From: Candidatus Pacearchaeota archaeon
GTDB lineage: Archaea; Nanobdellota; Nanobdellia; Pacearchaeales; GW2011-AR1
NCBI GenBank assembly: GCA_041656875.1
Contig: JBBACR010000002.1
Location: 8,084-72,083 of the forward strand
DNA length: 64,000 bases
Direction: 5' to 3'
Shown here: piece after piece, positions 1,030-13,843 of the stretch
Layout: each line of letters opens with the position of its first letter
How positions within the stretch are numbered: the stretch's first letter is position 1
Program-made: the position numbers and the translations under genes
The notes under the pieces: generated by a model
What the model was told of the DNA's origin: nothing
What the model saw: only the letters and a program-made list of their open reading frames with translations
Databases searched by the model: none

Positions 1030-2229
1030 TTACAAACCTAAAGATTCAACTAAGATTTCTCTAGATCTTTCCATTAAATTTTCAGGAATAGCCAGTTTAA
1101 TTTCTCTAGTCCTACCGTCTCTTCCTTTACTAATTACTCTTGCATTAATTAGTCCGAGCATATCAAATTCTGCTAGAATATCACTAACCCTTCTTTGAGT
1201 AAGAACATCAATACTAACTTTCTTACATAATTCTTGATAATAAGAATAAACATCTCCAGTAAATATATCTTCCTTAGAATTCTCGATAAGTTCTAAAATA
1301 GAGTAAAGAACTAACTGAAATTGTTTAGGTTCGGTTTCAATTATTTCAAGTATCTTATCTCTTTCAATTTTATCATTTGCATGGTCAATATGTTTTATTT
1401 CAATTTTAGGGTTTGACTCTCTTTCAGCAATTTCACCTGCAACTCTAAGTAAATCAAGGGCTCTTCTTGCATCTCCATGATCTCTTGCAGCAAAAGCAGC
1501 ACATTTTGCAATAACTCCCTCTGAAACCACATCAGGTTTAAATGCTTCATGAGCTCTTTTTCTTAAAATATCTTGTAACTGCATCGCATTATATGGGGGA
1601 AAGACTATTTCTTCTTCAGACAGAGAACTTTTAACTCTTTGATCAATCATATCTAAAAATCTTAAATCATTACTTATACCGATAATAATAATCTGTACAT
1701 TTTTAAGCTCTGAATTAAGTCTAGTCAAGTTATACAAGAATTCATCCGAAATCTTTTTAACTGCTTGGTCTATTTCATCAAGTACTAAGATAAATAGCTT
1801 TTCTTCATTATTTTCTAGTATTTCAAGAAACTTTAAGTAAACTTGATCTGTAGGCAGGCCAGTTGAAGGAACACTTCCACCTAATTTTTTTATGAGTTCG
1901 GCTAAAATCCTATATTCAGTATCTGCAACTTTTTTGAGTTTGCAATTTAAATATTCTACTCGTAATAATTTAGAATCTTTAGACCTTTCAGATAATTGGT
2001 TGGCAACATGAAGTACAGAAAGAGTTTTACCAGTTCCGGTTTTCCCATAAATAAAGATGTTACTAGTTTTTTGCCCAAGTAGACTGGGTGCAAGTATAGA
2101 TGCTATTTGTTCAATTTGTTTATCTCTATGAGGAATATCTCCCGGAGAATAATTTGATTGAAGAATTTGCTTATTTTTAAAAAGACTCCTTGTACCAACA
2201 GAATCAAATATTTTGTCAAGTTCAGTCAT
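1030..2229 (-). CDS. cdc6: Orc1/Cdc6 replication initiator (AAA+ with C-terminal winged helix)
   Basis: Walker A GKTGTGKT and Walker B LVLDEID. The length (399 aa) and C-terminal wH region are typical, and the gene sits next to an AT-rich ORB-containing spacer. Confidence 0.95.
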   Translation of the reverse strand: MTELDKIFDSVGTRSLFKNKQILQSNYSPGDIPHRDKQIEQIASILAPSLLGQKTSNIFIYGKTGTGKTLSVLHVANQLSERSKDSKLLRVEYLNCKLKKVADTEYRILAELIKKLGGSVPSTGLPTDQVYLKFLEILENNEEKLFILVLDEIDQAVKKISDEFLYNLTRLNSELKNVQIIIIGISNDLRFLDMIDQRVKSSLSEEEIVFPPYNAMQLQDILRKRAHEAFKPDVVSEGVIAKCAAFAARDHGDARRALDLLRVAGEIAERESNPKIEIKHIDHANDKIERDKILEIIETEPKQFQLVLYSILELIENSKEDIFTGDVYSYYQELCKKVSIDVLTQRRVSDILAEFDMLGLINARVISKGRDGRTREIKLAIPENLMERSREILVESLGL

Positions 2230-2312
2230 CTTTTTCCTCTTTTTATAAAACTAATTTAATTAAGATAAAACAATAACTAGAGTTTATAAATATAATTATA
2301 CTTAAAGAAATA

Positions 2313-2337
2313 CTCACCCCTATTTCCTATGAAATAG
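2313..2337 (-). repeat. ORB-like box a
   Basis: Minus strand reads CTATTTCATAGGAAATAGGGGTGAG: a dyad-like TTCA-TA-GGAAA followed by a G-string. Confidence 0.6.
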
Positions 2338-2404
2338 TAATAAATTAAAGGTAAACCTTCGAGTTTTTAGTAAAATAATAAAATTTATTTAAAAAAACTC
2401 CTTA

Positions 2405-2433
2405 CCCCTCACACCTTCTTTTCTAGTGGAGAA
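2405..2433 (-). repeat. ORB-like box b
   Basis: Minus strand reads TTCTCCACTAGAAAAGAAGGTGTGAGGGG: CTCCA-CT-AGAAA with a distal GGGG. Confidence 0.5.
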
Positions 2434-2440
2434 TTATAAT

Positions 2441-2575
2441 AATCTAATGCTTATTTTTTATACAATTAATAATAAAAATCAAAATAAATAATATATATAC
2501 TATATTATATATATTATATTATATATATTATATATATATATATATTTATAAATAAAAAATAGAAAAAGAAAAGTA
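2441..2575. other. Candidate duplex unwinding element (DUE)
   Basis: About 130 nt that are almost exclusively A/T, including tatattatatatattatattatatatattatatatatatatatat. It lies between oppositely oriented ORB boxes. Confidence 0.6.
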
Positions 2576-2599
2576 ATCTTTAACTTGATTATATAAACA

Positions 2600-2628
2600 C
2601 TTCCATAAGAAATAATAGGGGGAGGGGG
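2600..2628 (+). repeat. ORB-like box c
   Basis: Plus strand reads CTTCCATAAGAAATAATAGGGGGAGGGGG: TTCCA-TA-AGAAA plus a long G-string. It is inverted relative to boxes a and b. Confidence 0.6.
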
Positions 2629-2767
2629 TAAACCTTATTTTATTTAATATATTATTACTTATTTGATTATATTTATTATTATAAGATTAATTAATTAACA
2701 ATAAATATTAATTAAAATATAAGATTTATGCTCGAGGTTTTTAATATATAAACTTACCACAGAAAAC

Positions 2768-2775
2768 TTTATAAA
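2768..2775 (+). promoter_or_regulatory. TATA box for the PRC-barrel gene (leaderless-type spacing)
   Basis: tttataaa centred about 26 nt upstream of the ATG at 2797. Confidence 0.45.
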
Positions 2776-2796
2776 GAATTTTATTATATTTAACCT

Positions 2797-5083: not shown

Positions 5084-5156
5084 GTTTTTTGTCTAATTGT
5101 TTACTATTTGTCTGTCTTTTTATCTGTCTGTTGGAATCCAACAGTCAGTTAGACAG

Positions 5157-7811
5157 TTATTTTTCCTTTTCTTTTATTTCACGAGCAATTTCCTTATGCA
5201 TTCTTTTCATAAATTCCAGTTTATCTTCCATTTTTAAGAGGTCTGAATAGCCTTGCAATACCAAGTTCATTGCAAAAGGACTAGGTAAGTCAGTCTTAAC
5301 TTTTTCTATTTTTATTTTTCCATCATTTATTAATCTCAAAACTAGTTTTGTTTTTTCTTTGTCCATTAAGTCTTCTAAAACTTCTCTTCTAGCTTCTTTT
5401 AGTATTGGAAAATCTCGACTTATCTTATTTATAGCATTTAATAGAAAAAATGAGTTCATTTGTTGTTTTCCAACAGTTTTGCTTCTTCCCTTATAATTTC
5501 TAAGTATCATTAAGCTTCTTGCAGCACAGTGCCTAAATCTTCTTTTGAGTATTTCTGTCTTTGAAATAGCTTCTTCAAGTATTGCTTCAATATTTTCTGG
5601 CTTAAGTAACTTTAAAGCTTCATCAAGAGGCAGGTTTTCACCTGCAAAATAAAAACCATTATCATTAATACCTAGTTCAATATCTCTTCCAACTTTTTGT
5701 CCCATTAAATATCCAAGTGATCTTGATAATGCATCATTTACTCTTCTTCCATATAATGAATGAAATATAATATAATTTTTTTCACCTTTGTAGTATTCCA
5801 CTACTAACCTTTTTTCATGACTAATTTTAGAATATCTATATTGTTCATTAAAATAATTGTAGATAGCATTTGAAACTGCTGCATTAACATAACAATGTTC
5901 ACAAATAAACTCCCTGATTTCCTCTGGAGATGTTTTCTTTTCAAATTTCTCATTGAGTAAGTATCTAAATCGATTTATTTCAAGAGCCGTGTCAAAACTA
6001 AGTGGTAACATTTCACTAAACCATGAAGGGATAGTAGGATTTCTTTTAATTCCAGTCTTAACATAAGCTTTCATTCCACGCGTATACATAAATTGATATT
6101 TTTTCCCACCTAAGGCAAATACATCTCCAGGTTTCATTTTTTCAAGAAATCCCTCATCCACTACACCAACTTTTTGGTCTTTTCTTTCCCCTTCACCCAC
6201 CACAATAGTAATAAAACTTTCTTCAGGAATAGTCCCGATATTAGTAAGGTAAATAACTCTTGCAAGTTTTCCTTTTTTACCAATTTGTTTGGTCTTTGTA
6301 TCATACCATATTTTTGCATAAACATTTCTATGTTCTAAAGCATATTCTCCTGCTAAGTAAGAAATGACACTCATAAAATCATCTCTTGTTAAATTTCCAT
6401 AACAATAACTCTTTTTTATTACTTTAAGCATTTCATTAATATCCCAAGTTTTCTGAATAGCCATTCCAAATATCTGCTGAGATAAAACATCAAGACAGTT
6501 CCTTGGAATATTTATTCTATCTATCTTTTTTTCCTTACATTCTTTATTTAAAATACTACATTCAACTAAATCATCCCTGTCCAGAACAATAAATCTTCCC
6601 TTACTTGTATCATGTAATTTGTGGCCTGCTCTTCCAATTCTTTGAAGTGCTCTAGCAGAACTTTTAGGACTTCCAAGAAGTATTACTAAATCAATATAAC
6701 CAATGTCTATTCCAAGTTCAAGGCTTGTACTTGTAACCACTACTTTTAGTTCTCCTTTTCTTAGTTTTTCTTCAATTTCAAATCTATATTCTTTGCTTAG
6801 AGCAGAATGATGAGCTCCAATAACATCAATACTCTTAGTTTTAGTGGAGTTAGGGTCTTCATCAGGTATTTCTGTGATATAATTTTCAGGAAACATATCT
6901 TTTAAGTGATTTATTACTCTTTCAGTTGCAGCCCTGGTATTTGTAAATACAATAGTTGTTTTATGTTGTTGAATCAGCTTGTCTATAAGACCATACAAAG
7001 AGTTATGCATTTCCCCGGGATTAGTATCAATTAAATCTTTTACTCCTGTTAAAACTTCAATATCTAATTTTTTACTTGCAGAAACTTCAGCAATAGAGCA
7101 TTCTCTTTCCATTCCAACTAAAAAATTAGCGACTTCATCAAGGGGTGCAATTGTAGCCGATAGTCCAATTCGTACAGGAGTTATTTTACTGATATCTTCA
7201 AGCCGTTCAAGACTAATTGTCTGATAAACCCCCCTTTTATTTCCAAGAGAATGGATTTCATCAATTATAATAAATTCAACTCCATAAAAGTGTTCTATAA
7301 ACTTTTTACTTGTAAGAACAATAGCTAAGCTTTCAGGGGTTGTAACTAAAATATGCGGAGGGTTTTTTAACATTTTAGTTTTTTCTTTTGTTTCAGTATC
7401 CCCAGTTCTAAGGTTTACCCTTATCTTTTGGATTTCAATATTTTTAGACTCAGCTAGTTTGTAGATTTCTTCAAGTGGCCTTACTAAGTTAACAAAAATA
7501 TCATTATTTAACGCTTTAAGTGGACTAGTGTAAACGCAGTAAACTTTATTTTCTAATTCTTTTTTCATAGCAATATCCACCAAATAATTAAGAATCGCAA
7601 GAAAACTAGTCAAGGTCTTTCCATTTCCAGTAGGAGCAGAAATTAAAATATTCTTTCGTTCATGAACACTCATTACTCCATAGAGTTGACTTTCTGAAAA
7701 ATCAGAAAACCTACTAAAAAACCATTCTTTAACTAAAGGGTTTAAAATACTAATTATCTCTGTTGCCTTTCTTAGTTCTGCCCTAGGATATTGTTTTTTT
7801 ATAGTTTCCAT
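5157..7811 (-). CDS. lhr: Lhr-family ATP-dependent DEAD/DEAH-box helicase
   Basis: 884 aa. Walker A APTGNGKT, DEIH box, and helicase C motifs (QRIGRAGH). A long C-terminal extension typical of Lhr (DEAD/H-associated domain). Confidence 0.9.
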   Translation of the reverse strand: METIKKQYPRAELRKATEIISILNPLVKEWFFSRFSDFSESQLYGVMSVHERKNILISAPTGNGKTLTSFLAILNYLVDIAMKKELENKVYCVYTSPLKALNNDIFVNLVRPLEEIYKLAESKNIEIQKIRVNLRTGDTETKEKTKMLKNPPHILVTTPESLAIVLTSKKFIEHFYGVEFIIIDEIHSLGNKRGVYQTISLERLEDISKITPVRIGLSATIAPLDEVANFLVGMERECSIAEVSASKKLDIEVLTGVKDLIDTNPGEMHNSLYGLIDKLIQQHKTTIVFTNTRAATERVINHLKDMFPENYITEIPDEDPNSTKTKSIDVIGAHHSALSKEYRFEIEEKLRKGELKVVVTSTSLELGIDIGYIDLVILLGSPKSSARALQRIGRAGHKLHDTSKGRFIVLDRDDLVECSILNKECKEKKIDRINIPRNCLDVLSQQIFGMAIQKTWDINEMLKVIKKSYCYGNLTRDDFMSVISYLAGEYALEHRNVYAKIWYDTKTKQIGKKGKLARVIYLTNIGTIPEESFITIVVGEGERKDQKVGVVDEGFLEKMKPGDVFALGGKKYQFMYTRGMKAYVKTGIKRNPTIPSWFSEMLPLSFDTALEINRFRYLLNEKFEKKTSPEEIREFICEHCYVNAAVSNAIYNYFNEQYRYSKISHEKRLVVEYYKGEKNYIIFHSLYGRRVNDALSRSLGYLMGQKVGRDIELGINDNGFYFAGENLPLDEALKLLKPENIEAILEEAISKTEILKRRFRHCAARSLMILRNYKGRSKTVGKQQMNSFFLLNAINKISRDFPILKEARREVLEDLMDKEKTKLVLRLINDGKIKIEKVKTDLPSPFAMNLVLQGYSDLLKMEDKLEFMKRMHKEIAREIKEKEK

Positions 7812-9194: not shown

Positions 9195-9461
9195 ATGAGA
9201 CTTAGTAAAGATAAAAAAGATAAGATAGCTGAACAGATTCTTTCATTCTTATATCATAGTTTTCCTACTGAACCATTTACTGCAGAAATTGCAAGAGAAG
9301 TAGTAAGAGATGAGGAATTTATCAAAAGGATCCTATTTGAATTAAAGGATAAAAACCTAGTCCTTGCTATAAGAAAAAATAACAAAGGGGACCTATTCTC
9401 AAGGAGACTTAAATGGAGACTTTCAAATAAAGTCTATGATGCCTATAGGTCAAGGCAGTAA
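9195..9461 (+). CDS. Small winged-helix-like protein
   Basis: 88 aa. The helix-rich IAEQILSFLYHS...FIKRILFELKDKNLVLAIRKN pattern resembles a small wHTH. The assignment is weak. Confidence 0.4.
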   Translation: MRLSKDKKDKIAEQILSFLYHSFPTEPFTAEIAREVVRDEEFIKRILFELKDKNLVLAIRKNNKGDLFSRRLKWRLSNKVYDAYRSRQ

Positions 9462-9522: not shown

Positions 9523-10293
9523 ATGGAAAAAGAGCAGATTAAATTAGCTTTCTCAAAAGTAAAACAAGATATGCTTATTTTAGAGAATGAAGTATCAGCC
9601 CTAAGATTAGAAGTTTCTGAGCTCAATTCTCTAATTAGGACTCTTTCTGAAGAATTAACTCATCAAAGATTACAGGAAATAGCCTATCCAACAGATACTA
9701 ATTCGGTTTTATCCTCGATAACTCCAACAGACAGTCAGACAATCCAACAGATAAACCCAACATTAGACAGTTATCCAACAGACAGTCAGACAGTTCCACA
9801 GGAAATAGAGGGGTTAAAAACCCATTATTTTGATACTTCCACAGGAAATAGAGGGGTTCCAACAGACAGACAGACAGTTAGACAGACAGACCAACAGACA
9901 GAAAACAAGGTATTTTTGCCTTATTCAGAGGCTAGTAACTCTACCAGCATTGAGGCAAATATACAAGAGGCTTCTGAGATTTTAAACTCCCTAGATCGCT
10001 TAAAAAAGGAAATAAGGCTAAAATTTAAGAACCTTACAAGCCAAGAAATGCTTGTTTTCTCGACGATATATCAGCTTGAAGAGAATGATCCTCAAAATAA
10101 TACCTATAATCATATAGCTTTTATCCTTCATTTAAGTGAAAGCTCTATTCGAGATTATGTACAAAAAATGATTAAAAAAGGCATCCCAATTAAGAAAAAC
10201 AAGATAAACAATCGAAAGATTCTCTTGTTTATTTCTCAGGATTTAAAGAAAATAGCCACTCTGCCAACGATTATTAAGCTAAGAGAGCTTTAA
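9523..10293 (+). CDS. Coiled-coil / repeat-linker / C-terminal winged-helix protein (paralog of 10943..11569)
   Basis: N-terminal heptad-like region (LENEVSALRLEVSELNSLIRTLSEEL). A PTDSQT-type repeat linker. A C-terminal wHTH-like region (LTSQEMLVFSTIYQL...SESSIRDYVQKMIKKGI). Confidence 0.6.
   Translation: MEKEQIKLAFSKVKQDMLILENEVSALRLEVSELNSLIRTLSEELTHQRLQEIAYPTDTNSVLSSITPTDSQTIQQINPTLDSYPTDSQTVPQEIEGLKTHYFDTSTGNRGVPTDRQTVRQTDQQTENKVFLPYSEASNSTSIEANIQEASEILNSLDRLKKEIRLKFKNLTSQEMLVFSTIYQLEENDPQNNTYNHIAFILHLSESSIRDYVQKMIKKGIPIKKNKINNRKILLFISQDLKKIATLPTIIKLREL
9794..9815 (+). repeat. ORB-type box, copy 1 (inside the CDS linker)
   Basis: TTCCACAGGAAATAGAGGGGTT. It fits the dyad-plus-G-string architecture of archaeal origin recognition boxes. 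Confidence 0.6.
9837..9858 (+). repeat. ORB-type box, copy 2 (identical, 43-nt period)
   Basis: Identical 22-mer TTCCACAGGAAATAGAGGGGTT. Confidence 0.6.
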
Positions 10294-10445
10294 CCCCTAA
10301 TAAATCAAAATTTAAGGTTTTTAAGCCTTTTTAGCCTTATTTAATCTATTCCTTATTTGTTCTTTTTAGACCACTTCAGAGCTTTTATTTCTAAAACTCC
10401 TCATAATTTTTTGTTTTTAAGTTCGGTGTAACGAATTTAAACAAG

Positions 10446-10470
10446 TCCTAGCTACGGCTAGGATTTTTTT
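10446..10470 (+). terminator. Hairpin plus T7 tract
   Basis: tcctagc-tacg-gctagga (7-bp perfect stem, 4-nt loop) followed by ttttttt. It lies about 150 nt downstream of the stop at 10293. Confidence 0.35.
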
Positions 10471-10735
10471 ATCAATTTATCAATTTTTCACAAGCCTTAA
10501 AAACCTAAAATATTGAGTTTTTAAGACTTAAACACTTAATTACTTACTTAAATGTTTGAGCTTTTCCAAACTCTATTTTTTTACTTTTTTAAGCTTTTTT
10601 GACTTGGTTTTCCACTCACTTTTTGATTGAATATACAGTTTGACTTCATTTTTTAATCCTCTTATTTGGGCTCAGCTCTATTTTTCTCACTTTTTGACTG
10701 AAATTAATGATTTTTTGTTGTTTTTTCATATTAGT

Positions 10736-10752
10736 TAACTCTCACTTTTCCG
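10736..10752 (+). repeat. 17-nt direct repeat, copy 1
   Basis: taactctcacttttccg, repeated exactly at 10829..10845. Related ctcacttttt words occur near 10613 and 10686. Confidence 0.7.
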
Positions 10753-10828
10753 ATTTTTAGGGGTTTTTTGAGCTTTTTTCCATAAAAAACCATTGTTTTT
10801 TAGTGTTTTTACCCTATTGTATCTAGGC

Positions 10829-10845
10829 TAACTCTCACTTTTCCG
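10829..10845 (+). repeat. 17-nt direct repeat, copy 2
   Basis: taactctcacttttccg, identical to 10736..10752. Confidence 0.7.
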
Positions 10846-10942
10846 TTTTTTTAAGCCTTTTTGCTTATTTTTAGCCTATTTTATTGTTTTTTGCTTATTT
10901 TTTAGGACTTTTTGTCTTTTTCTTAGTTATTATTGCCTATTA

Positions 10943-11569
10943 TTAATCTATTTCCAGGTCTTCATTTTTATTTCTTTTTTTAACTCTATCTTTTATCTTT
11001 TTACTTTTGAGTAATATATCTTTAACTTTTTCAGGAATATAGACTCTTTTTTTATTATTTTCTCCAATAATTTCTTCAATTAATCCTTCATTTTTTTGCC
11101 TTATATTATTTATTTGGCCCCTAACTGTTGCTTTATCTTTTCCAAGCATTGCAGCTAGATCTTCATAAGAAAGTTTCATGTCTGAATTAAGTAAAACAAA
11201 GATTATTGCCCTTTCAGTTGTAGATAAATTGTCTAAAAATGTTGTTTGAACAGCTGTTTGAACGCCGTTTAAAACACTAGAAACAGGTGTCTGTTTACTA
11301 AACACTGTTTGCCTTTGTTTGAAAACTGGTCGTTCTCCCACAATAGAAAGAATATTTTTAAGGCTTTCAAGCTCTTCTTTAACCGAAGCTAATTCTTCAT
11401 GTAGGTCAAAAATATCATCTTTTAGCTTAGAATCTTCAGTGTCTAGGTGTTTGACCCAAGTACCTAAACTGTTTATATCATGTTTAGAGCTGTTGAAGCC
11501 TGTTTGAACAGCCTGTTTAAGTTGTTCAACTTCTCTTTTTTCAGCTTTTTTTGTAAAAAATCCAAACAT
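10943..11569 (-). CDS. Coiled-coil / linker / winged-helix protein (paralog of 9523..10293)
   Basis: N-terminal coiled coil (DIFDLHEELASVKEELESLKNIL). A QT-rich linker. A C-terminal wHTH-like region (LSTTERAIIFVLLNSDMKLSYEDLAAMLGKDKATVRGQINNIRQK). Confidence 0.6.
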   Translation of the reverse strand: MFGFFTKKAEKREVEQLKQAVQTGFNSSKHDINSLGTWVKHLDTEDSKLKDDIFDLHEELASVKEELESLKNILSIVGERPVFKQRQTVFSKQTPVSSVLNGVQTAVQTTFLDNLSTTERAIIFVLLNSDMKLSYEDLAAMLGKDKATVRGQINNIRQKNEGLIEEIIGENNKKRVYIPEKVKDILLKSKKIKDRVKKRNKNEDLEID

Positions 11570-11762
11570 AATGTAATTAAAAAATGATTATTTATAAACC
11601 TTACGATTCACCATATGCAAATACCTGTTCAAACACCAGTTTATCGTCGTGAAAATTTTTTTTTGAACACTGTTTGAACACTAGTATTTTTTTCATTTTT
11701 TCATTAAATTTTTTAAAAATATGCTCTCTAGATAAAACATGCTTTAAAATATCTCAAAAATA

Positions 11763-11783
11763 GGGTGTTTGAACAACTTGAAA
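11763..11783 (+). repeat. 21-nt inverted repeat, left arm
   Basis: gggtgtttgaacaacttgaaa is the exact reverse complement of 13339..13359. Confidence 0.8.
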
Positions 11784-11925
11784 TTGATTATTTTTTAACA
11801 AAAAGCTAAAATAAATGTCCTAAAATGCTTAAAATTAAGCCAATTATTACACTACAAAGATGCCTTCGGTCATAGTTAAAAATTAAACAAAAACCGCTTA
11901 ATTTTTTTAATAAATAACTAGCTAG

Positions 11926-11962
11926 AAATAGCTTAATTTTTAATCAAAAATAGCTTAATTTT
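11926..11962 (+). repeat. Tandem 22-nt-period repeat (aaatagcttaatttt x2)
   Basis: aaatagcttaatttt at 11926..11940 and again at 11948..11962. A related ccgcttaattttt lies near 11894. Confidence 0.6.
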
Positions 11963-12413
11963 GATAAATTAATCAAAAATAATGAATTTTTTAGCAATTT
12001 CAAACTTCGTTTTTTGTTCAATAATAAGCTTTAAATACGAAAAAAACCTCTACTTTCTAACCAAATTTAACTAAAATAAGCTAAATTATTAATAAAGATC
12101 CGCTTATTTTGAACTGTTCAAAAGGACCAAAACCCATGATTATCCGCTGGCCCTAAACTCTAGAAATCACTTTAAACTAGATATAATAGTTGGCAGAATA
12201 ATTGCATTATTTCATGCTATAAGGTATCCTATCATTTTCCATAAGACTAGCTTCCTTGCAAGATCCTAACCCTATGCCAAAAGTTAGGGTCTTCGCAACC
12301 TCCTAAAAGTAAGCAAAAACATAAGCGTAATGCTAAAAACTTTTAGCATAGGCAAAATCAATCAAAAATATCACAATCATAATTTCAAAAAAATCTGAGG
12401 AAAAAGAAATAAA

Positions 12414-12449
12414 TTTCCTATTTAGTTACAGGAATAAGTAAATAGGAAA
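12414..12449. repeat. 11-bp palindrome with 14-nt spacer
   Basis: tttcctattta (12414-12424) pairs with taaataggaaa (12439-12449). The right arm, ATAGGAAATAAGGTGA, resembles ORB box a. Confidence 0.5.
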
Positions 12450-12472
12450 TAAGGTGAAATAAGTAAGAAAAA

Positions 12473-12497
12473 GAAACGAAACGAAACGAAACGAAAA
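12473..12497 (+). repeat. Pentanucleotide tandem repeat (GAAAC)x4 + GAAAA
   Basis: gaaacgaaacgaaacgaaacgaaaa, inside a ~200-nt almost pure-purine tract (12420-12625). Confidence 0.8.
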
Positions 12498-12625
12498 ATT
12501 AGAAAGGTAGGTAGCCTAGGGTAAATGGGCAAGGTAAAAAGACGAAAAAAGGTAGGTGGCCTAAAGTTAGCTAGAGGCCAGCCAAAAAAGGCAAGAAAGG
12601 AAAACTAAACAAAAAGGAGGCAAAA

Positions 12626-12865
12626 ATGGAAAAAATAGATCCAATAATAAAAGATCTTGGAGCTAGTGCAATGGCTTTAAGACTGCAGGAATCATGTACT
12701 TGTAGCAGGGTTAGTTACAAACATGTTGGTCTTTTTCTAATTCTAATTCTAGTTTTAGTACTAGCATCTCAAAGAACTTTTATTTTTCCAGCTATTGTTC
12801 CACAACTGCTTGCGATTTTAGTTAGTACATCCTTTATAGATAACAGGGAAAAAAGACCCAAATAA
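12626..12865 (+). CDS. Small membrane protein (hypothetical)
   Basis: 79 aa with a hydrophobic core (VGLFLILILVLVLA...). A strong aggagg sits 7 nt upstream of the ATG, which is unusual in this otherwise leaderless-looking window. Confidence 0.45.
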   Translation: MEKIDPIIKDLGASAMALRLQESCTCSRVSYKHVGLFLILILVLVLASQRTFIFPAIVPQLLAILVSTSFIDNREKRPK

Positions 12866-13009
12866 ATATCATGATTAAATTATGATTAATTCATGATTTT
12901 AATTTAGCCTCACAACCTAAGTTATAAAAAAACAACATTTATTTTTTTATTTTTCAACCTAGTTATAAATCCAATAAATAAAGCGACATTATGCGAACCT
13001 TTTTAAGAT

Positions 13010-13031
13010 AAACCCCTTCATTTCCTATGAA
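13010..13031 (-). repeat. ORB-like box in the island
   Basis: Minus strand reads TTCATAGGAAATGAAGGGGTTT. It shares the 13-mer atttcctatgaaa with oriC box a (2321-2333). Confidence 0.5.
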
Positions 13032-13106
13032 AAAAGTACGCTTTTTCATCTTTTTTTAAAATTTATTTTCAAAAGCTTTAAAAGTTAAGTTCATTTTATA
13101 GGTATT

Positions 13107-13328
13107 ATGAAAAGAGATAAAGAGCCAGATTTTTGTGGGGTTTGCTCTCCCTCATGTAGTAATTATATGTACATACAACAAGAGTGTTGGTCAAAGGTAG
13201 TCAGGTTACTAGATACTAAAGGCCAACCAGTTCAGTTAGGAGATCCCTGTCTTTATCCCGGAACCTATGAAACATCCCATTTCTATAAAAATATCCATCC
13301 AAAATCCCGGGATAAAAGGCATTACTAG
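13107..13328 (+). CDS. Cys-rich mini-protein (paralog of 13473..13682)
   Basis: 73 aa. It shares the pattern C-G-x-x-C ... C ... GDPC-x-Y with the neighbouring ORF. Confidence 0.5.
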   Translation: MKRDKEPDFCGVCSPSCSNYMYIQQECWSKVVRLLDTKGQPVQLGDPCLYPGTYETSHFYKNIHPKSRDKRHY

Positions 13329-13338
13329 GTTTGACTAG

Positions 13339-13359
13339 TTTCAAGTTGTTCAAACACCC
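13339..13359 (+). repeat. 21-nt inverted repeat, right arm
   Basis: tttcaagttgttcaaacaccc is the exact reverse complement of 11763..11783. Confidence 0.8.
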
Positions 13360-13441
13360 CTTTATCGAGGGTAAAATCACCAAAACAAACACCTTCTAAA
13401 CAGCTTAAAAACAGTCAAAAACCCCTGTTTAAACACCCTAA

Positions 13442-13452
13442 TTTTTATAAAT
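13442..13452 (+). promoter_or_regulatory. TATA box
   Basis: tttttataaat centred about 26 nt upstream of the ATG at 13473. Confidence 0.45.
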
Positions 13453-13472
13453 CCTGTGCCCATCCACTACTT

Positions 13473-13682
13473 ATGGGTGAGATAAGAATTTGTGGGCCTG
13501 AATGTGAACACTTCCTTAAAGACAGAGATGATTTTTATAGATGTGCAAAGATAGAAGTTTACTTAGATATTCATGTAAGAGCAGGAGATCCCTGTAAGTA
13601 CGAAGTGCAGCCTAAAATATCTTTAGGTGGACTCGAGTCTTTGGGTGAAGGTATTTTTCTCGGCCGTATTAGGGGATTTTAA
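13473..13682 (+). CDS. Cys-rich mini-protein (paralog of 13107..13328)
   Basis: 69 aa with ICGPECEHF...RCAK...AGDPCKYE. The Cys/GDPC spacing pattern matches the upstream ORF. Confidence 0.5.
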   Translation: MGEIRICGPECEHFLKDRDDFYRCAKIEVYLDIHVRAGDPCKYEVQPKISLGGLESLGEGIFLGRIRGF

Positions 13683-13696
13683 TATTATTTGATCTA

Positions 13697-13761
13697 GCAG
13701 TAACTTTTTAGCTTTTATCAAAAGTTTTTGCATATATAAAAATCTACTTTTAAACACTACA
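13697..13761 (+). repeat. 65-nt repeat family, copy R1
   Basis: gcagtaactttttagcttttatcaaaagtttttgcatatataaaaatctacttttaaacactaca. Confidence 0.8.
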
Positions 13762-13843
13762 CACAACTCAAAAATAGTAGTTAGACACTACAAGCCAGCT
13801 TAAAAAAAGAAAAATATAAAAAGGGTTTTTTGATGAAAGTAAG

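Follow-up and report, generated by a model that had tools for sequence, protein, structure and literature searches.

In bacteria, clusters of initiator boxes lying near the origin but outside it are known in the case of Escherichia coli datA and the DnaA-box clusters of Bacillus subtilis, most of which are intergenic, and the parS centromere site of B. subtilis is located inside the spo0J/parB gene near oriC. In archaea, ORBs are the established binding sites of Orc1 and their G-string has been defined (PMC1868953), while the mini-ORB core is characterized by conserved TTCC and GAA motifs (PMC1904270). An intragenic ORB3/mini-ORB cluster is present in dp1, the gene for PolD's small subunit, in Pyrococcus and Thermococcus (Matsunaga et al., 2007, PMC1904270), and in vivo Cdc6/Orc1 binds the Pyrococcus cluster with a strength similar to that seen at oriC (PMC1904270). 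This Thermococcales precedent for an Orc1-bound ORB cluster within a gene was missed in the earlier note on the DNA studied here. Literature searches on DPANN/Pacearchaeota origins and on intragenic ORBs yielded no account of the present element, and a literal sequence search of the literature returned unrelated primers only.

In the window, i.e., the whole stretch of 64,000 nucleotides analyzed, the 22-mer TTCCACAGGAAATAGAGGGGTT was found to occur in exactly two copies, 43 nt apart, inside a winged-helix regulator gene referred to below as the host gene (Table 1), which confirms the exact pair and the period previously claimed. No further matches with up to three mismatches were found in the whole 64-kb window, and shuffled sequences are expected to yield none. 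As in dp1, the ORB-type boxes occupy part of a protein-coding gene located a few kb away from both oriC and orc1, and just as the dp1 cluster is conserved across an order, the present element is kept in relatives. The host, however, is a winged-helix regulator gene and not that of a polymerase subunit; it is located on the oriC side of orc1, whereas dp1 is on the far side; and the boxes occur in DNA encoding a disordered linker, are read in two frames and alternate with the copies of a second motif, which form an array. In this putative binding element, moreover, constraint on silent sites is demonstrated over 80 species.

Table 1. Features of the window associated with the intragenic boxes, ordered by position.
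Feature	Position	Strand	Remarks
orc1/cdc6 initiator gene	1030..2229	-	NCBIfam ORC1-type model, 500 bits; Pfam Cdc6_C, Cdc6_lid, AAA
oriC	2230..2796	.	Three ORBs, 2311-2336 (-), 2408-2433 (-) and 2599-2624 (+), on either side of a (TA)n-rich stretch (~2440-2560)
Intergenic palindrome of the second motif, CTGTCTAACTGACTGTTGGA-T-TCCAACAGACAGATAAAAAGACAGACA	5109..5156	-	Between the Lhr-type helicase and phosphoesterase genes
Small gene, 88 aa	9195..9461	+	Immediately upstream of the host gene; sub-threshold winged-helix-type matches; module member
Host gene	9523..10293	+	256 aa; coiled-coil helix, disordered linker, MarR-like winged helix
Second motif, upstream copies [T/A]CCAACAGA[C/T]	9687..9783	+	At 9687, 9724, 9744 and 9775
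ORB-class box 1, TTCCACAGGAAATAGAGGGGTT	9794..9815	+	Exact copy; 26.4 bits with the oriC-ORB matrix; read as V-PQEIEGL
Spacer between the boxes	9816..9836	+	21 nt; 76% A+T vs. ~70% in the window; length fixed across relatives
ORB-class box 2, same 22-mer	9837..9858	+	Exact copy; 25.8 bits; read as STGNRGVP, in another frame
Second motif, downstream CCAACAGAC copies (9859, 9891) and ACAGAC/(ACAG)n tract	9859..9902	+	Read as PTDRQTVRQTDQQT
Convergent paralogue, same architecture	10943..11569	-	Linker DNA at ~11236-11330 with 12-nt-phased GTT[C/T]AAACA units
Three GTTCAAACA / TGTTTGAACA copies, operator-like	11618..11683	.	Just upstream of the paralogue start codon

Both boxes include the mini-ORB core (TTCCAcAGGAAAT) and a G-string, GGGG, 4 nt past GGAAA, which is 96-100% conserved. 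Both were recovered by a weight matrix for which 58 orc1-adjacent ORBs were the sole training set, in line with the ORB class to which the boxes had previously been attributed. When this matrix was run over 1.2 Mb of fetched homologous loci, the matches scoring at least 20 bits were essentially confined to two places, oriC (84 matches) and the host gene (129); among the 7 others, 6 fall at the beginning of a contig, in the place expected for oriC, and 1 is a truncated copy of the gene. The strict pattern behaved likewise (104 matches in the host gene, 8 elsewhere), and in a metagenome scan 106 of the 128 exact matches fell in genes of the family; at least 3 of the remaining 22 adjoin orc1 homologues, and 2 have more ORB-like copies within the ~90 nt inspected. 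The idea that the gene boxes fit better than those of oriC holds for a generic pattern only: with the clade's own matrix they score 26.4 and 25.8 bits, vs. 31.1, 24.7 and 13.3 bits for the three oriC boxes. They thus reach the scores of authentic oriC ORBs in these genomes and share with canonical oriC ORBs the TTCC...GAA core and the downstream G-string, but they are located in coding DNA, form a direct pair with no unwinding element, and lack the second G-string (GGTGTGAGGGG) typical of the oriC ORBs of this clade, GGGGTT being followed instead by CCAACAGAC. In terms of their sequence, the linker boxes can be assigned to the same class as the orc1-adjacent ORBs.

Two other candidate boxes were rejected. 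The supposed truncated third copy at 9670-9684 shares no more than a 10-11-mer, scores less than 8 bits with the oriC matrix and lies in a part of the protein which varies among relatives. An ORB-like site in the Lhr-type helicase gene, TCTCCAGAGGAAATCAGGGAGTTT (encoding SPEEIREF), recurs in some loci, but since its peptide and codons vary widely over 39 loci, there is no consistent constraint on it.

The host gene is linked to oriC. At the 7-kb distance previously claimed, we found the orc1 gene together with an oriC-like intergenic region carrying three ORBs, and the same three-box layout beside orc1 occurs in 36 other loci. Among the 40 loci having at least 9 kb of flanking sequence, orc1 is located upstream of the host gene, in divergent orientation and 1.5-9.4 kb away, in 34. 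The element is not directly adjacent to the initiator gene, other genes intervening in most of the loci. The gene boxes have the orientation of the right-hand oriC ORB.

The architecture of the host protein proposed in the earlier note, a coiled coil and a winged helix joined by a linker, agrees with the structure prediction, which gives a helix (residues 2-54), a predicted disordered segment (59-139, with pLDDT values below 50 throughout) and a helix plus winged helix (143-255). The alternative suggestion of an ORF arising by fusion across a non-coding element was not borne out, since the N- and C-terminal domains are encoded in one ORF in 79 of the 80 loci compared, i.e., in all the complete host genes recovered, the copy in L063 being cut by the contig end. 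The gene family comprises 2296 hits, and the C-terminal domain alone forms 627 clusters at 50% identity. In searches against Pfam and NCBIfam, every HTH match of the protein was below the cut-off and no curated family threshold was reached. The fold of its C-terminal domain is nearest to MarR-family structures (Foldseek E ~1e-4); a winged helix of the Orc1/Cdc6 or Cdt1 type was considered and rejected, the best structural matches being generic MarR-family regulators. The protein therefore resembles the MarR/Lrs14-type regulators at fold level, from which it differs in having an N-terminal coiled coil and a disordered linker of ~80 residues.

The linker-coding segment was compared among 80 species-level relatives belonging to the Pace-, Woese- and Nanoarchaeota, showing 41-63% protein identity. 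It is conserved at the nucleotide level, silent codon positions included: a single codon, in some cases a rare one, is used at the silent sites in 90-100% of the genomes, as can be seen from the frequencies of TCC (0.96 vs. a background of 0.11), GGG (0.96 vs. 0.14), GAC (1.00 vs. 0.25) and CAG (0.92 vs. 0.27). In the folded domains, the top codon at invariant residues reaches only 0.38-0.42, which is the background frequency. At positions where a pair of sequences agrees in the amino acid, the same codon is used at a frequency of 0.89 in the linker vs. 0.53 and 0.46 in the two domains, the pairwise identity of the linker peptide being 56%. The variable sites track the box (the nnn spacer and C/T at position 7) and not the codon structure, and ~45 nt of the element are nearly invariant across the 80 species examined. 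The boxes are constrained as DNA and not as a peptide repeat. The earlier note had asked whether relatives keep the protein without the boxes, or whether the motif is common; instead, the boxes are kept down to their silent sites and are not common elsewhere.

Box 2 is the most conserved part of the linker DNA: the codons TCC AyA GGA AAT nnn GGG GTT, with their silent sites fixed, are present in all 80 relatives, while those of box 1 (GTT CCA CAG GAA ATA GnG GGG TTA AAA) are kept in ~60 of them. Box 2 occurs without box 1 in ~18 distant relatives, and some family members, a minority known as proteins only, appear to have no box. The distance between the two is 43 nt in all 44 genes bearing two strict boxes, and because of this period the copies fall in different codon phases. 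The spacer, previously described as A/T-rich, is not notably so in a genome with ~70% A+T and, being close to the average of the window, it does not qualify as an unwinding element.

Two further origins for this conservation were tried and rejected. An overlapping, dual-coding gene is not consistent with the alternative frames in the 80 relatives, none of which is consistently open (+2 in 0/80, +3 in 8/80, antisense in at most 51/80). As regards a mobile or viral element, no match to the box-plus-ACAGAC pattern was found in the viral contigs scanned, and since the linker variants track the gene's own phylogeny (in 70 of 79 cases, the variant is shared with the nearest neighbor in the domain phylogeny), nothing points to horizontal replacement; the variants are inherited vertically.

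The CCAACAGAC repeats reported at 9724, 9775, 9859 and 9891 are indeed present, CCAACAGAT occurs additionally at 9687 and 9744, and an imperfect (ACAG)n tract extends from 9862 to 9902. The ACA codons of the upstream copies are 95-100% fixed, vs. a background of 0.42. ACAGAC was considered as a possible part of the ORB system and rejected: its density per kb is 8.8 in the host gene, 0.15 at oriC and 0.22 elsewhere, and since it is not enriched at oriC it is a motif separate from the ORB. That these repeats constitute a second motif, with a palindromic counterpart in intergenic DNA, had previously gone unnoticed. The counterpart exists not only in the window, since the palindromic arrangement recurs in L001, L002, L003, L006, L013 and L019, and in one case of covariation (L010) the palindrome and the gene both carry the variant TCGACAGAC. 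The operators of MarR/Lrs14-type regulators are also palindromic, and the present palindrome, which is operator-like, is built from the linker motif. The intergenic palindromes do not contain the ORB-class part, GGAAAT-n3-GGGG, for which the oriC ORBs are the sole intergenic counterparts, and neither motif has a copy in the host gene's own promoter region.

The host gene belongs to a conserved three-gene module. In 77 of the 80 loci, the 88-aa gene lies directly upstream on the same strand; its product shows only weak family matches, below threshold (Rrf2, E 0.097; Csa3 HTH, E 0.066), and no homology was detected between this protein and the C-terminal domain of the host protein. The convergent paralogue was likewise found in 77 loci, and the three-gene winged-helix module as a whole is conserved in 77/80. 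The codons of the paralogue linker are also conserved at the nucleotide level, and GTT[C/T]AAACA is present there in 247 copies in 77 genes. This motif occurs within 600 nt of the paralogue start in 47 loci, and 114 of its 200 non-coding copies fall 0-200 nt upstream of that start. The paralogue therefore repeats the gene-embedded motif design using its own promoter motif, a point which had escaped notice so far.

The explanation we favor, with moderate confidence, is that ~180 bp of the linker-coding DNA form a composite protein-binding platform, the ORB-class boxes of which most likely bind Orc1. Selection on the DNA itself would keep this platform, and the linker would be conserved letter by letter because it carries initiator boxes along with other protein-binding motifs. 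The 43 bp separating the two direct boxes correspond to about four helical turns, so that the boxes would be exposed on the same face of the helix, where they would most likely be occupied by the Orc1/Cdc6 encoded 7 kb away; they might form an accessory initiator-binding cluster beside oriC, after the fashion of the dp1 ORB cluster in Thermococcales. The flanking array, (T)CCAACAGAC(AG), may serve the winged-helix proteins encoded nearby as an operator. Such a platform would be tolerated by the protein because this segment is translated into an unstructured linker, and for the same reason the peptide motifs VPQEIxGLK and STGNxGVPTDRQT would be by-products of the DNA. The likely consequences are that the initiator and the module proteins would be held at a fixed site just to the right of oriC and that read-through of the host gene would be coupled to its occupancy by these proteins; the identity of the binders and the effects of their binding are what we infer. 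Some observations count against this explanation: the gene boxes lack the second G-string of the clade's oriC ORBs, box 1 is missing in ~18 distant relatives, and a minority of the family, known as proteins only, appears to have no box. The leading idea is that the intragenic boxes may constitute an Orc1 titration or regulatory site, as already proposed in the earlier note. In bacterial DnaA-box clusters such as datA, high-affinity initiator sites outside the origin could hold or titrate the initiator, as the present element might; the initiator and the motif differ, and titration is suggested here by analogy.

A possible, if less probable, reading is one in which the boxes, together with the CCAACAGAC array, serve as operators for the product of the host gene itself or its module partners, forming an autoregulatory or nucleation array. 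The box start GTTCCACAG differs by only one base from GTTCCAACAG in the second motif, and the ORB likeness might therefore partly reflect a shared core (GTTCCA), the binder being a module protein rather than Orc1, or else a protein competing or cooperating with Orc1 at ORBs. The fact that the linker motif of the paralogue also clusters upstream of its own start (114/200), as its promoter operator, makes the product of the host gene a serious candidate for binding the linker DNA. The MarR-like C-terminal domain, the conservation of the module and the intergenic palindrome, which has the form usual for dimeric winged-helix operators and shows covariation with the gene in L010, are consistent with this reading. 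The parS site in spo0J/parB may provide an analogy, that of a binding site near the origin within the coding sequence of its own binder, a design suggested here by the paralogue motif, although the host protein has no homology with ParB and its self-binding is putative. What argues against the self-operator reading is that GGAAAT-n3-GGGG is absent from the palindromes and has its intergenic counterparts at oriC only, that neither motif occurs in the promoter region of the host gene, and that the ORB is an established Orc1 site (PMC1868953).

In a bolder and rather doubtful version, the three-gene winged-helix module may be an origin-organizing or segregation-type system of DPANN archaea, nucleating on arrays in its own linker DNA, with the main protein recognizing the ORB-like boxes. 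If so, this protein would compete or cooperate with Orc1 and would be an unrecognized origin-binding factor in archaea having a single Orc1.

It seems improbable that the conserved letters act in the mRNA, as a site for protein or RNA binding or as a signal for translational pausing or frameshifting between the two domains. Silent-site constraint alone cannot distinguish between DNA and RNA functions, and some database proteins start at the box in another frame (e.g., MEIKGFQQTNRQTD). The motif, however, is that of a known class of DNA sites, which occurs on either strand of the intergenic DNA at oriC, and the second motif recurs inverted in non-coding DNA. No conserved secondary structure was detected: RNAalifold gave -0.85 and -2.1 kcal/mol for the two strands of the 189-nt conserved block, with no supporting covariation, and Rfam gave no match at either gathering or permissive (E<=1) thresholds.

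The hypothesis that the host gene contains a second replication origin, cryptic or accessory, which the earlier note had raised, is even harder to sustain. Two high-scoring ORB-class boxes are present with orc1 close by, but these boxes point in the same direction, 43 bp apart, on the + strand of coding DNA. The inverted layout around an unwinding element encountered at oriC was not met with, the spacer having only 21 nt with 76% A+T, and for want of both an unwinding element and an inverted pair the site is not taken to be an origin. The three ORBs of the real oriC, placed around its (TA)n stretch, lie 1.5-9.4 kb away in 34 of the 40 informative loci, and the most distant relatives have a single box.

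Very little can be said for a contingency locus, where deletion or slippage, promoted by the 22-bp direct repeats together with the (ACAG)n tract, would lead to a frameshift and switch the protein off. The distance between the repeats, 43 nt, is not divisible by 3, and the tetranucleotide tract lies in a coding region; but since the spacer positions of the two boxes differ in most relatives, they are not exact repeats there, the number and spacing of the repeats are fixed over 80 species, both domains are encoded in one ORF in every complete gene (79/80 loci), and slippage leaves the conservation of a specific, non-repetitive sequence unexplained. An ordinary peptide repeat or a chance likeness, i.e., amino acid conservation plus codon bias, can be dismissed: the linker peptide is itself conserved (56% pairwise identity), but the two box copies are translated in different frames, rare codons are fixed in them, in contrast to invariant residues elsewhere, which are encoded at background codon frequencies, and no chance matches are expected.

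In the platform reading, the same letters of coding DNA would have a dual use, specifying a tolerated disordered peptide and a conserved, putative protein-binding platform. In a family of over 2000 members, the conserved "protein motifs" would then for the most part be shadows of a DNA element, which calls for caution in annotation and in motif-based inference of function. In the case of DPANN archaea, which have not yet been grown, the finding points to a defined candidate accessory initiator site beside oriC and to a conserved set of origin-proximal DNA-binding proteins, and the element provides a sharp marker for finding the origin region in fragmented DPANN assemblies. Since the observation made on dp1 in Thermococcales would thus reach a distant lineage, archaea in general may have intragenic ORB clusters flanking the origin.

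The earlier note described two exact plus-strand copies of TTCCACAGGAAATAGAGGGGTT (boxes 1 and 2) with a period of 43 nt and four copies of CCAACAGAC within a 256-aa winged-helix gene (the host gene), and all of these were recovered at the positions it gave. No further matches to the 22-mer with up to three mismatches were found in the 64-kb window, where the chance expectation is also zero. Since the 43-nt period puts the two copies in different codon phases, a peptide repeat was ruled out. Two other features described earlier did not survive: the supposed truncated third box at 9670 has no more than 10-11 nt in common with the others, scores less than 8 bits with a matrix trained on oriC and is located where the protein varies among relatives, and the 21-nt spacer between the boxes (76% A+T) is nothing special in a genome with about 70% A+T.

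Features discussed in the text (window positions; ORB, origin recognition box)
Feature	Position	Strand	Remarks
orc1 gene	1030..2229	-	NCBIfam ORC1-type, 500 bits; Pfam Cdc6_C, lid, AAA
oriC intergenic region	2230-2796		three ORBs: two minus-strand boxes next to orc1 and one plus-strand box, flanking a (TA)n-rich stretch
Palindrome CTGTCTAACTGACTGTTGGA-T-TCCAACAGACAGATAAAAAGACAGACA	5109-5156	-	70-bp gap between Lhr-type helicase and phosphoesterase genes
Lhr-type helicase gene	5157..7811	-	
ORB-like TCTCCAGAGGAAATCAGGGAGTTT	5906-5931	-	in helicase gene; encodes SPEEIREF; 16.8 bits
88-aa gene	9195..9461	+	immediately upstream of host gene, same strand; winged-helix-type matches all sub-threshold
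Host gene	9523..10293	+	
CCAACAGAT	9687, 9744		additional second-motif copies
CCAACAGAC	9724, 9775, 9859, 9891		second-motif copies in linker DNA
Box 1	9794-9815	+	encodes V-PQEIEGL
Box 2	9837-9858	+	encodes STGNRGVP
Imperfect (ACAG)n tract	9862-9902		
41-nt inverted repeat	10289, 10492		
Gap between convergent genes	10294-10942		unusually long (650 bp), T-rich; several repeat families (TTTTTAAGCC-type units and the 41-nt and 44-nt repeats of this table); no ORB matches
44-nt repeat	10736, 10829		
Convergent paralogue	10943..11569	-	same coiled-coil, linker, winged-helix design
ORF-poor region	11570-13843		2.3 kb without ORF of at least 80 aa; about six copies of TGTTCAAACAC(C); no match to Rfam families
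GTT[C/T]AAACA copies	11618-11683		upstream of paralogue start
ORB-like box	13009-13034	-	18.6 bits; counterpart at same relative place in relative locus L003

Structure prediction gave a single long helix over residues 2-54, disorder (pLDDT below 50) over residues 59-139, the segment into which all the DNA motifs fall, and a helix with a winged helix over residues 143-255. The nearest fold is that of the MarR-family regulators (Foldseek E ~1e-4), and no curated family was matched at threshold in Pfam or NCBIfam. The full protein has 2296 matches and its C-terminal domain forms 627 clusters at 50% identity, in organisms labeled in the sources as Pacearchaeota, Woesearchaeota or Nanoarchaeota, that is, DPANN archaea. 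The idea that the ORF is a fusion across a non-coding element is contradicted by the presence of both domains in one ORF in every complete gene (79 of the 80 loci examined). Four short family proteins (P0154, P0158, P0170, and P0195) start at box 2 in the frame of box 1 (MEIKGFQQTNRQTD...) and then run on into the winged helix; frameshifted or split genes, errors of assembly, and fragments cut off at contig ends are all conceivable explanations.

Within the linker, about 180 bp form a composite DNA element that is under strong selection at the nucleotide level. In a codon alignment of 80 species-representative loci with protein identities of 41-63%, the linker is the best-conserved DNA of the host gene: T TCC AyA GGA AAT nnn GGG GTT CCA ACA GAC AGA CAG ACA is present in nearly every genome, and ACA GTT CCA CAG GAA ATA GnG GGG TTA AAA additionally in about 60. 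The codons used at the well-conserved linker residues depart strongly from the background: TCC (0.96 vs. 0.11), GGG (0.96 vs. 0.14), GAC (1.00 vs. 0.25), CAG (0.92 vs. 0.27), and ACA (0.96-1.00 vs. 0.42), whereas the commonest codon of the invariant winged-helix residues S207, L204, G220, and R210 accounts for 38-42%, as in the background. Pairs of sequences that agree in the amino acid also agree in the codon in 0.89 of cases in the linker, but in 0.53 and 0.46 of cases in the N- and C-terminal domains, respectively, although pairwise protein identity is higher in the C-terminal domain (0.62) than in the linker (0.56). The variable positions, namely a three-base spacer and a C/T at position 7, track the box rather than the codons, and every one of the 44 genes with two strict boxes has them 43 nt apart. 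The linker variants agree with the phylogeny inferred from the domains on either side (in 70 of 79 cases a sequence and its nearest neighbor have the same variant), and the conservation is therefore one of vertical purifying selection on the nucleotides.

Lineage-specific forms of the motif were also observed, in which several positions per gene change together (residues 89, 113, and 125 of the window protein). CCAACAGAC, encoding Pro, occurs in 55 of the 80 loci and TCGACAGAC, encoding Ser with the otherwise rare TCG codon, in 24, which form a coherent group by domain similarity; some database proteins, examined as protein sequences, read GVQTD, which would correspond to GTTCAAACAGAC if the usual codons are used.

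Part of the element belongs to the ORB class. The three-box layout of the oriC is identical in 37 intergenic regions adjacent to orc1 (the window and 36 fetched loci), with the consensus tTTCCAtaaGAAAt.aagGtGtg.ggg. A weight matrix trained on 58 oriC boxes only, scanned at 20 bits or more over all 1.2 Mb, gave 84 matches in oriC regions, 129 in the host gene, and seven elsewhere. Six of these seven lie right at a contig start, at the position 5-7 kb upstream of the gene that oriC would be expected to occupy, and the seventh in a truncated copy of the gene. With this matrix the two boxes of the window score 26.4 and 25.8 bits, which falls among the scores of the true oriC boxes (31.1, 24.7, and 13.3). 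The better fit than the oriC boxes claimed in the earlier note holds for the generic ORB pattern only. A strict pattern gave 104 matches in the gene vs. eight outside it, mostly at oriC. Among the at least 128 matches to TTCCAYAGGAAATNNNGGGGTT listed in a public metagenome scan, 106 are in genes of the host-gene family; of the other 22 listed, at least three lie beside orc1 homologs and two have further ORB-like copies in the inspected flank. The boxes carry the TTCC/GAA mini-ORB core (PMC1904270) and the G-string (PMC1868953) by which ORBs have been defined, but they lack the second G-string of the oriC ORBs of the same clade. Sequences like that in the Lhr-type helicase gene recur in a scattered manner (L003, L026, L039, L044, L052, and L069); a constrained ORB site was rejected here, the peptide and codons varying widely without any consistent constraint.

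The element is also linked to oriC. The intergenic region adjoining orc1, which encodes the Orc1/Cdc6 initiator, has the expected oriC anatomy, and orc1 lies upstream of the host gene in divergent orientation in 34 of the 40 loci whose upstream flank extends over 9 kb or more, at a distance of 1.5-9.4 kb (median 6.2 kb). The orientation of the gene boxes is always that of the right-hand oriC ORB. The host gene is the middle member of a three-gene module, with the 88-aa gene and the convergent paralogue, in 77 of the 80 loci. The origin-proximal order in the first 9500 positions of the window is conserved among these loci: orc1 (-), oriC, a PRC-barrel-like 86-aa gene, a 139-aa gene, a metallophosphoesterase (-), the Lhr-type helicase (-), and the module; these neighbors could be recognized in between 36 and 54 of the 80 loci. 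In L004, L023, L036, and L074, Orc1 is found as two same-strand matches, one to residues 1-77 and one to residues 66-399, separated by about 1.0-1.3 kb; this points to an insertion at the P-loop region, such as an intein.

The remainder of the element consists of a second motif, ACAGAC/CCAACAGAC, with an operator-like intergenic counterpart. Its density is 8.8 per kb in the gene vs. 0.15 at oriC and 0.22 elsewhere, and it was therefore rejected as an oriC motif. The intergenic palindrome is built from the linker motif TCCAACAGACAG and has equivalents in L001, L002, L003, L006, L013, and L019, making seven close relatives with L010, where the gene variant TCGACAGAC covaries with a palindrome that is also TCGACAGAC; it looks like a candidate operator for a dimeric winged-helix protein. 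The paralogue shows the design more clearly than the host gene: its linker DNA carries a 12-nt-phased GTT[C/T]AAACA array, read ...VQTxVQT..., which is nucleotide-conserved in 77 loci. Counts for this motif were 247 within the 77 paralogue genes and 200 in non-coding DNA; 114 of the non-coding copies fall into the 200 nt that precede the start codon of the paralogue itself. The motifs of the host gene and its paralogue differ by one base (GTTC[C/A]AACA), and each ORB-class box begins with GTTCCACAG, which in turn is one base different from GTTCCAACAG.

Among the alternative explanations, viral or mobile copies of the element were not found in a search of viral contigs, and an overlapping ORF finds no support, frame +2 being open in none of the 80 loci, +3 in eight, and the antisense frames in at most 51. 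As regards RNA structure, RNAalifold gave -0.85 and -2.1 kcal/mol for the two strands without covariation support, and no Rfam family matched the element even at E up to 1. The cryptic or accessory origin envisaged in the earlier note was abandoned because the boxes point in the same direction 43 bp apart, with no inverted pair or unwinding element, and the most distant relatives carry one box only. The main rival has the product of the host gene itself binding the boxes as an array of self-sites, by analogy with parS, which lies inside the parB gene; we regard self-binding as possible but rather unlikely. If it were true, the host protein would be an origin-binding factor. Self-binding and binding by Orc1 are not mutually exclusive.

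In the reading preferred here, the ORB-class boxes would be recognized by Orc1 and make up an accessory cluster of initiator-binding sites next to the origin, and the second motif on either side would be recognized by the winged-helix proteins of the module itself. The peptide motifs would be by-products that a disordered linker can tolerate. The nearest known case of ORBs within a coding gene is the ORB3/mini-ORB cluster in the dp1 gene of Pyrococcus and Thermococcus, which is conserved across the order and occupied in vivo by Cdc6/Orc1 about as strongly as oriC (PMC1904270). Intragenic ORB clusters as such are therefore already known; a full-text literature search found no description of the present element or of origins in these lineages. 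What is new is the host gene and lineage, the two-frame embedding of the boxes in a disordered linker, the breadth of the silent-site conservation, which extends to all 80 species-level genomes examined, and the combination with a second motif array, of operator type, which the neighboring paralogue mirrors. Binding at the element may serve to hold or titrate the initiator, act as a transcriptional roadblock, or contribute to the architecture of the origin region.
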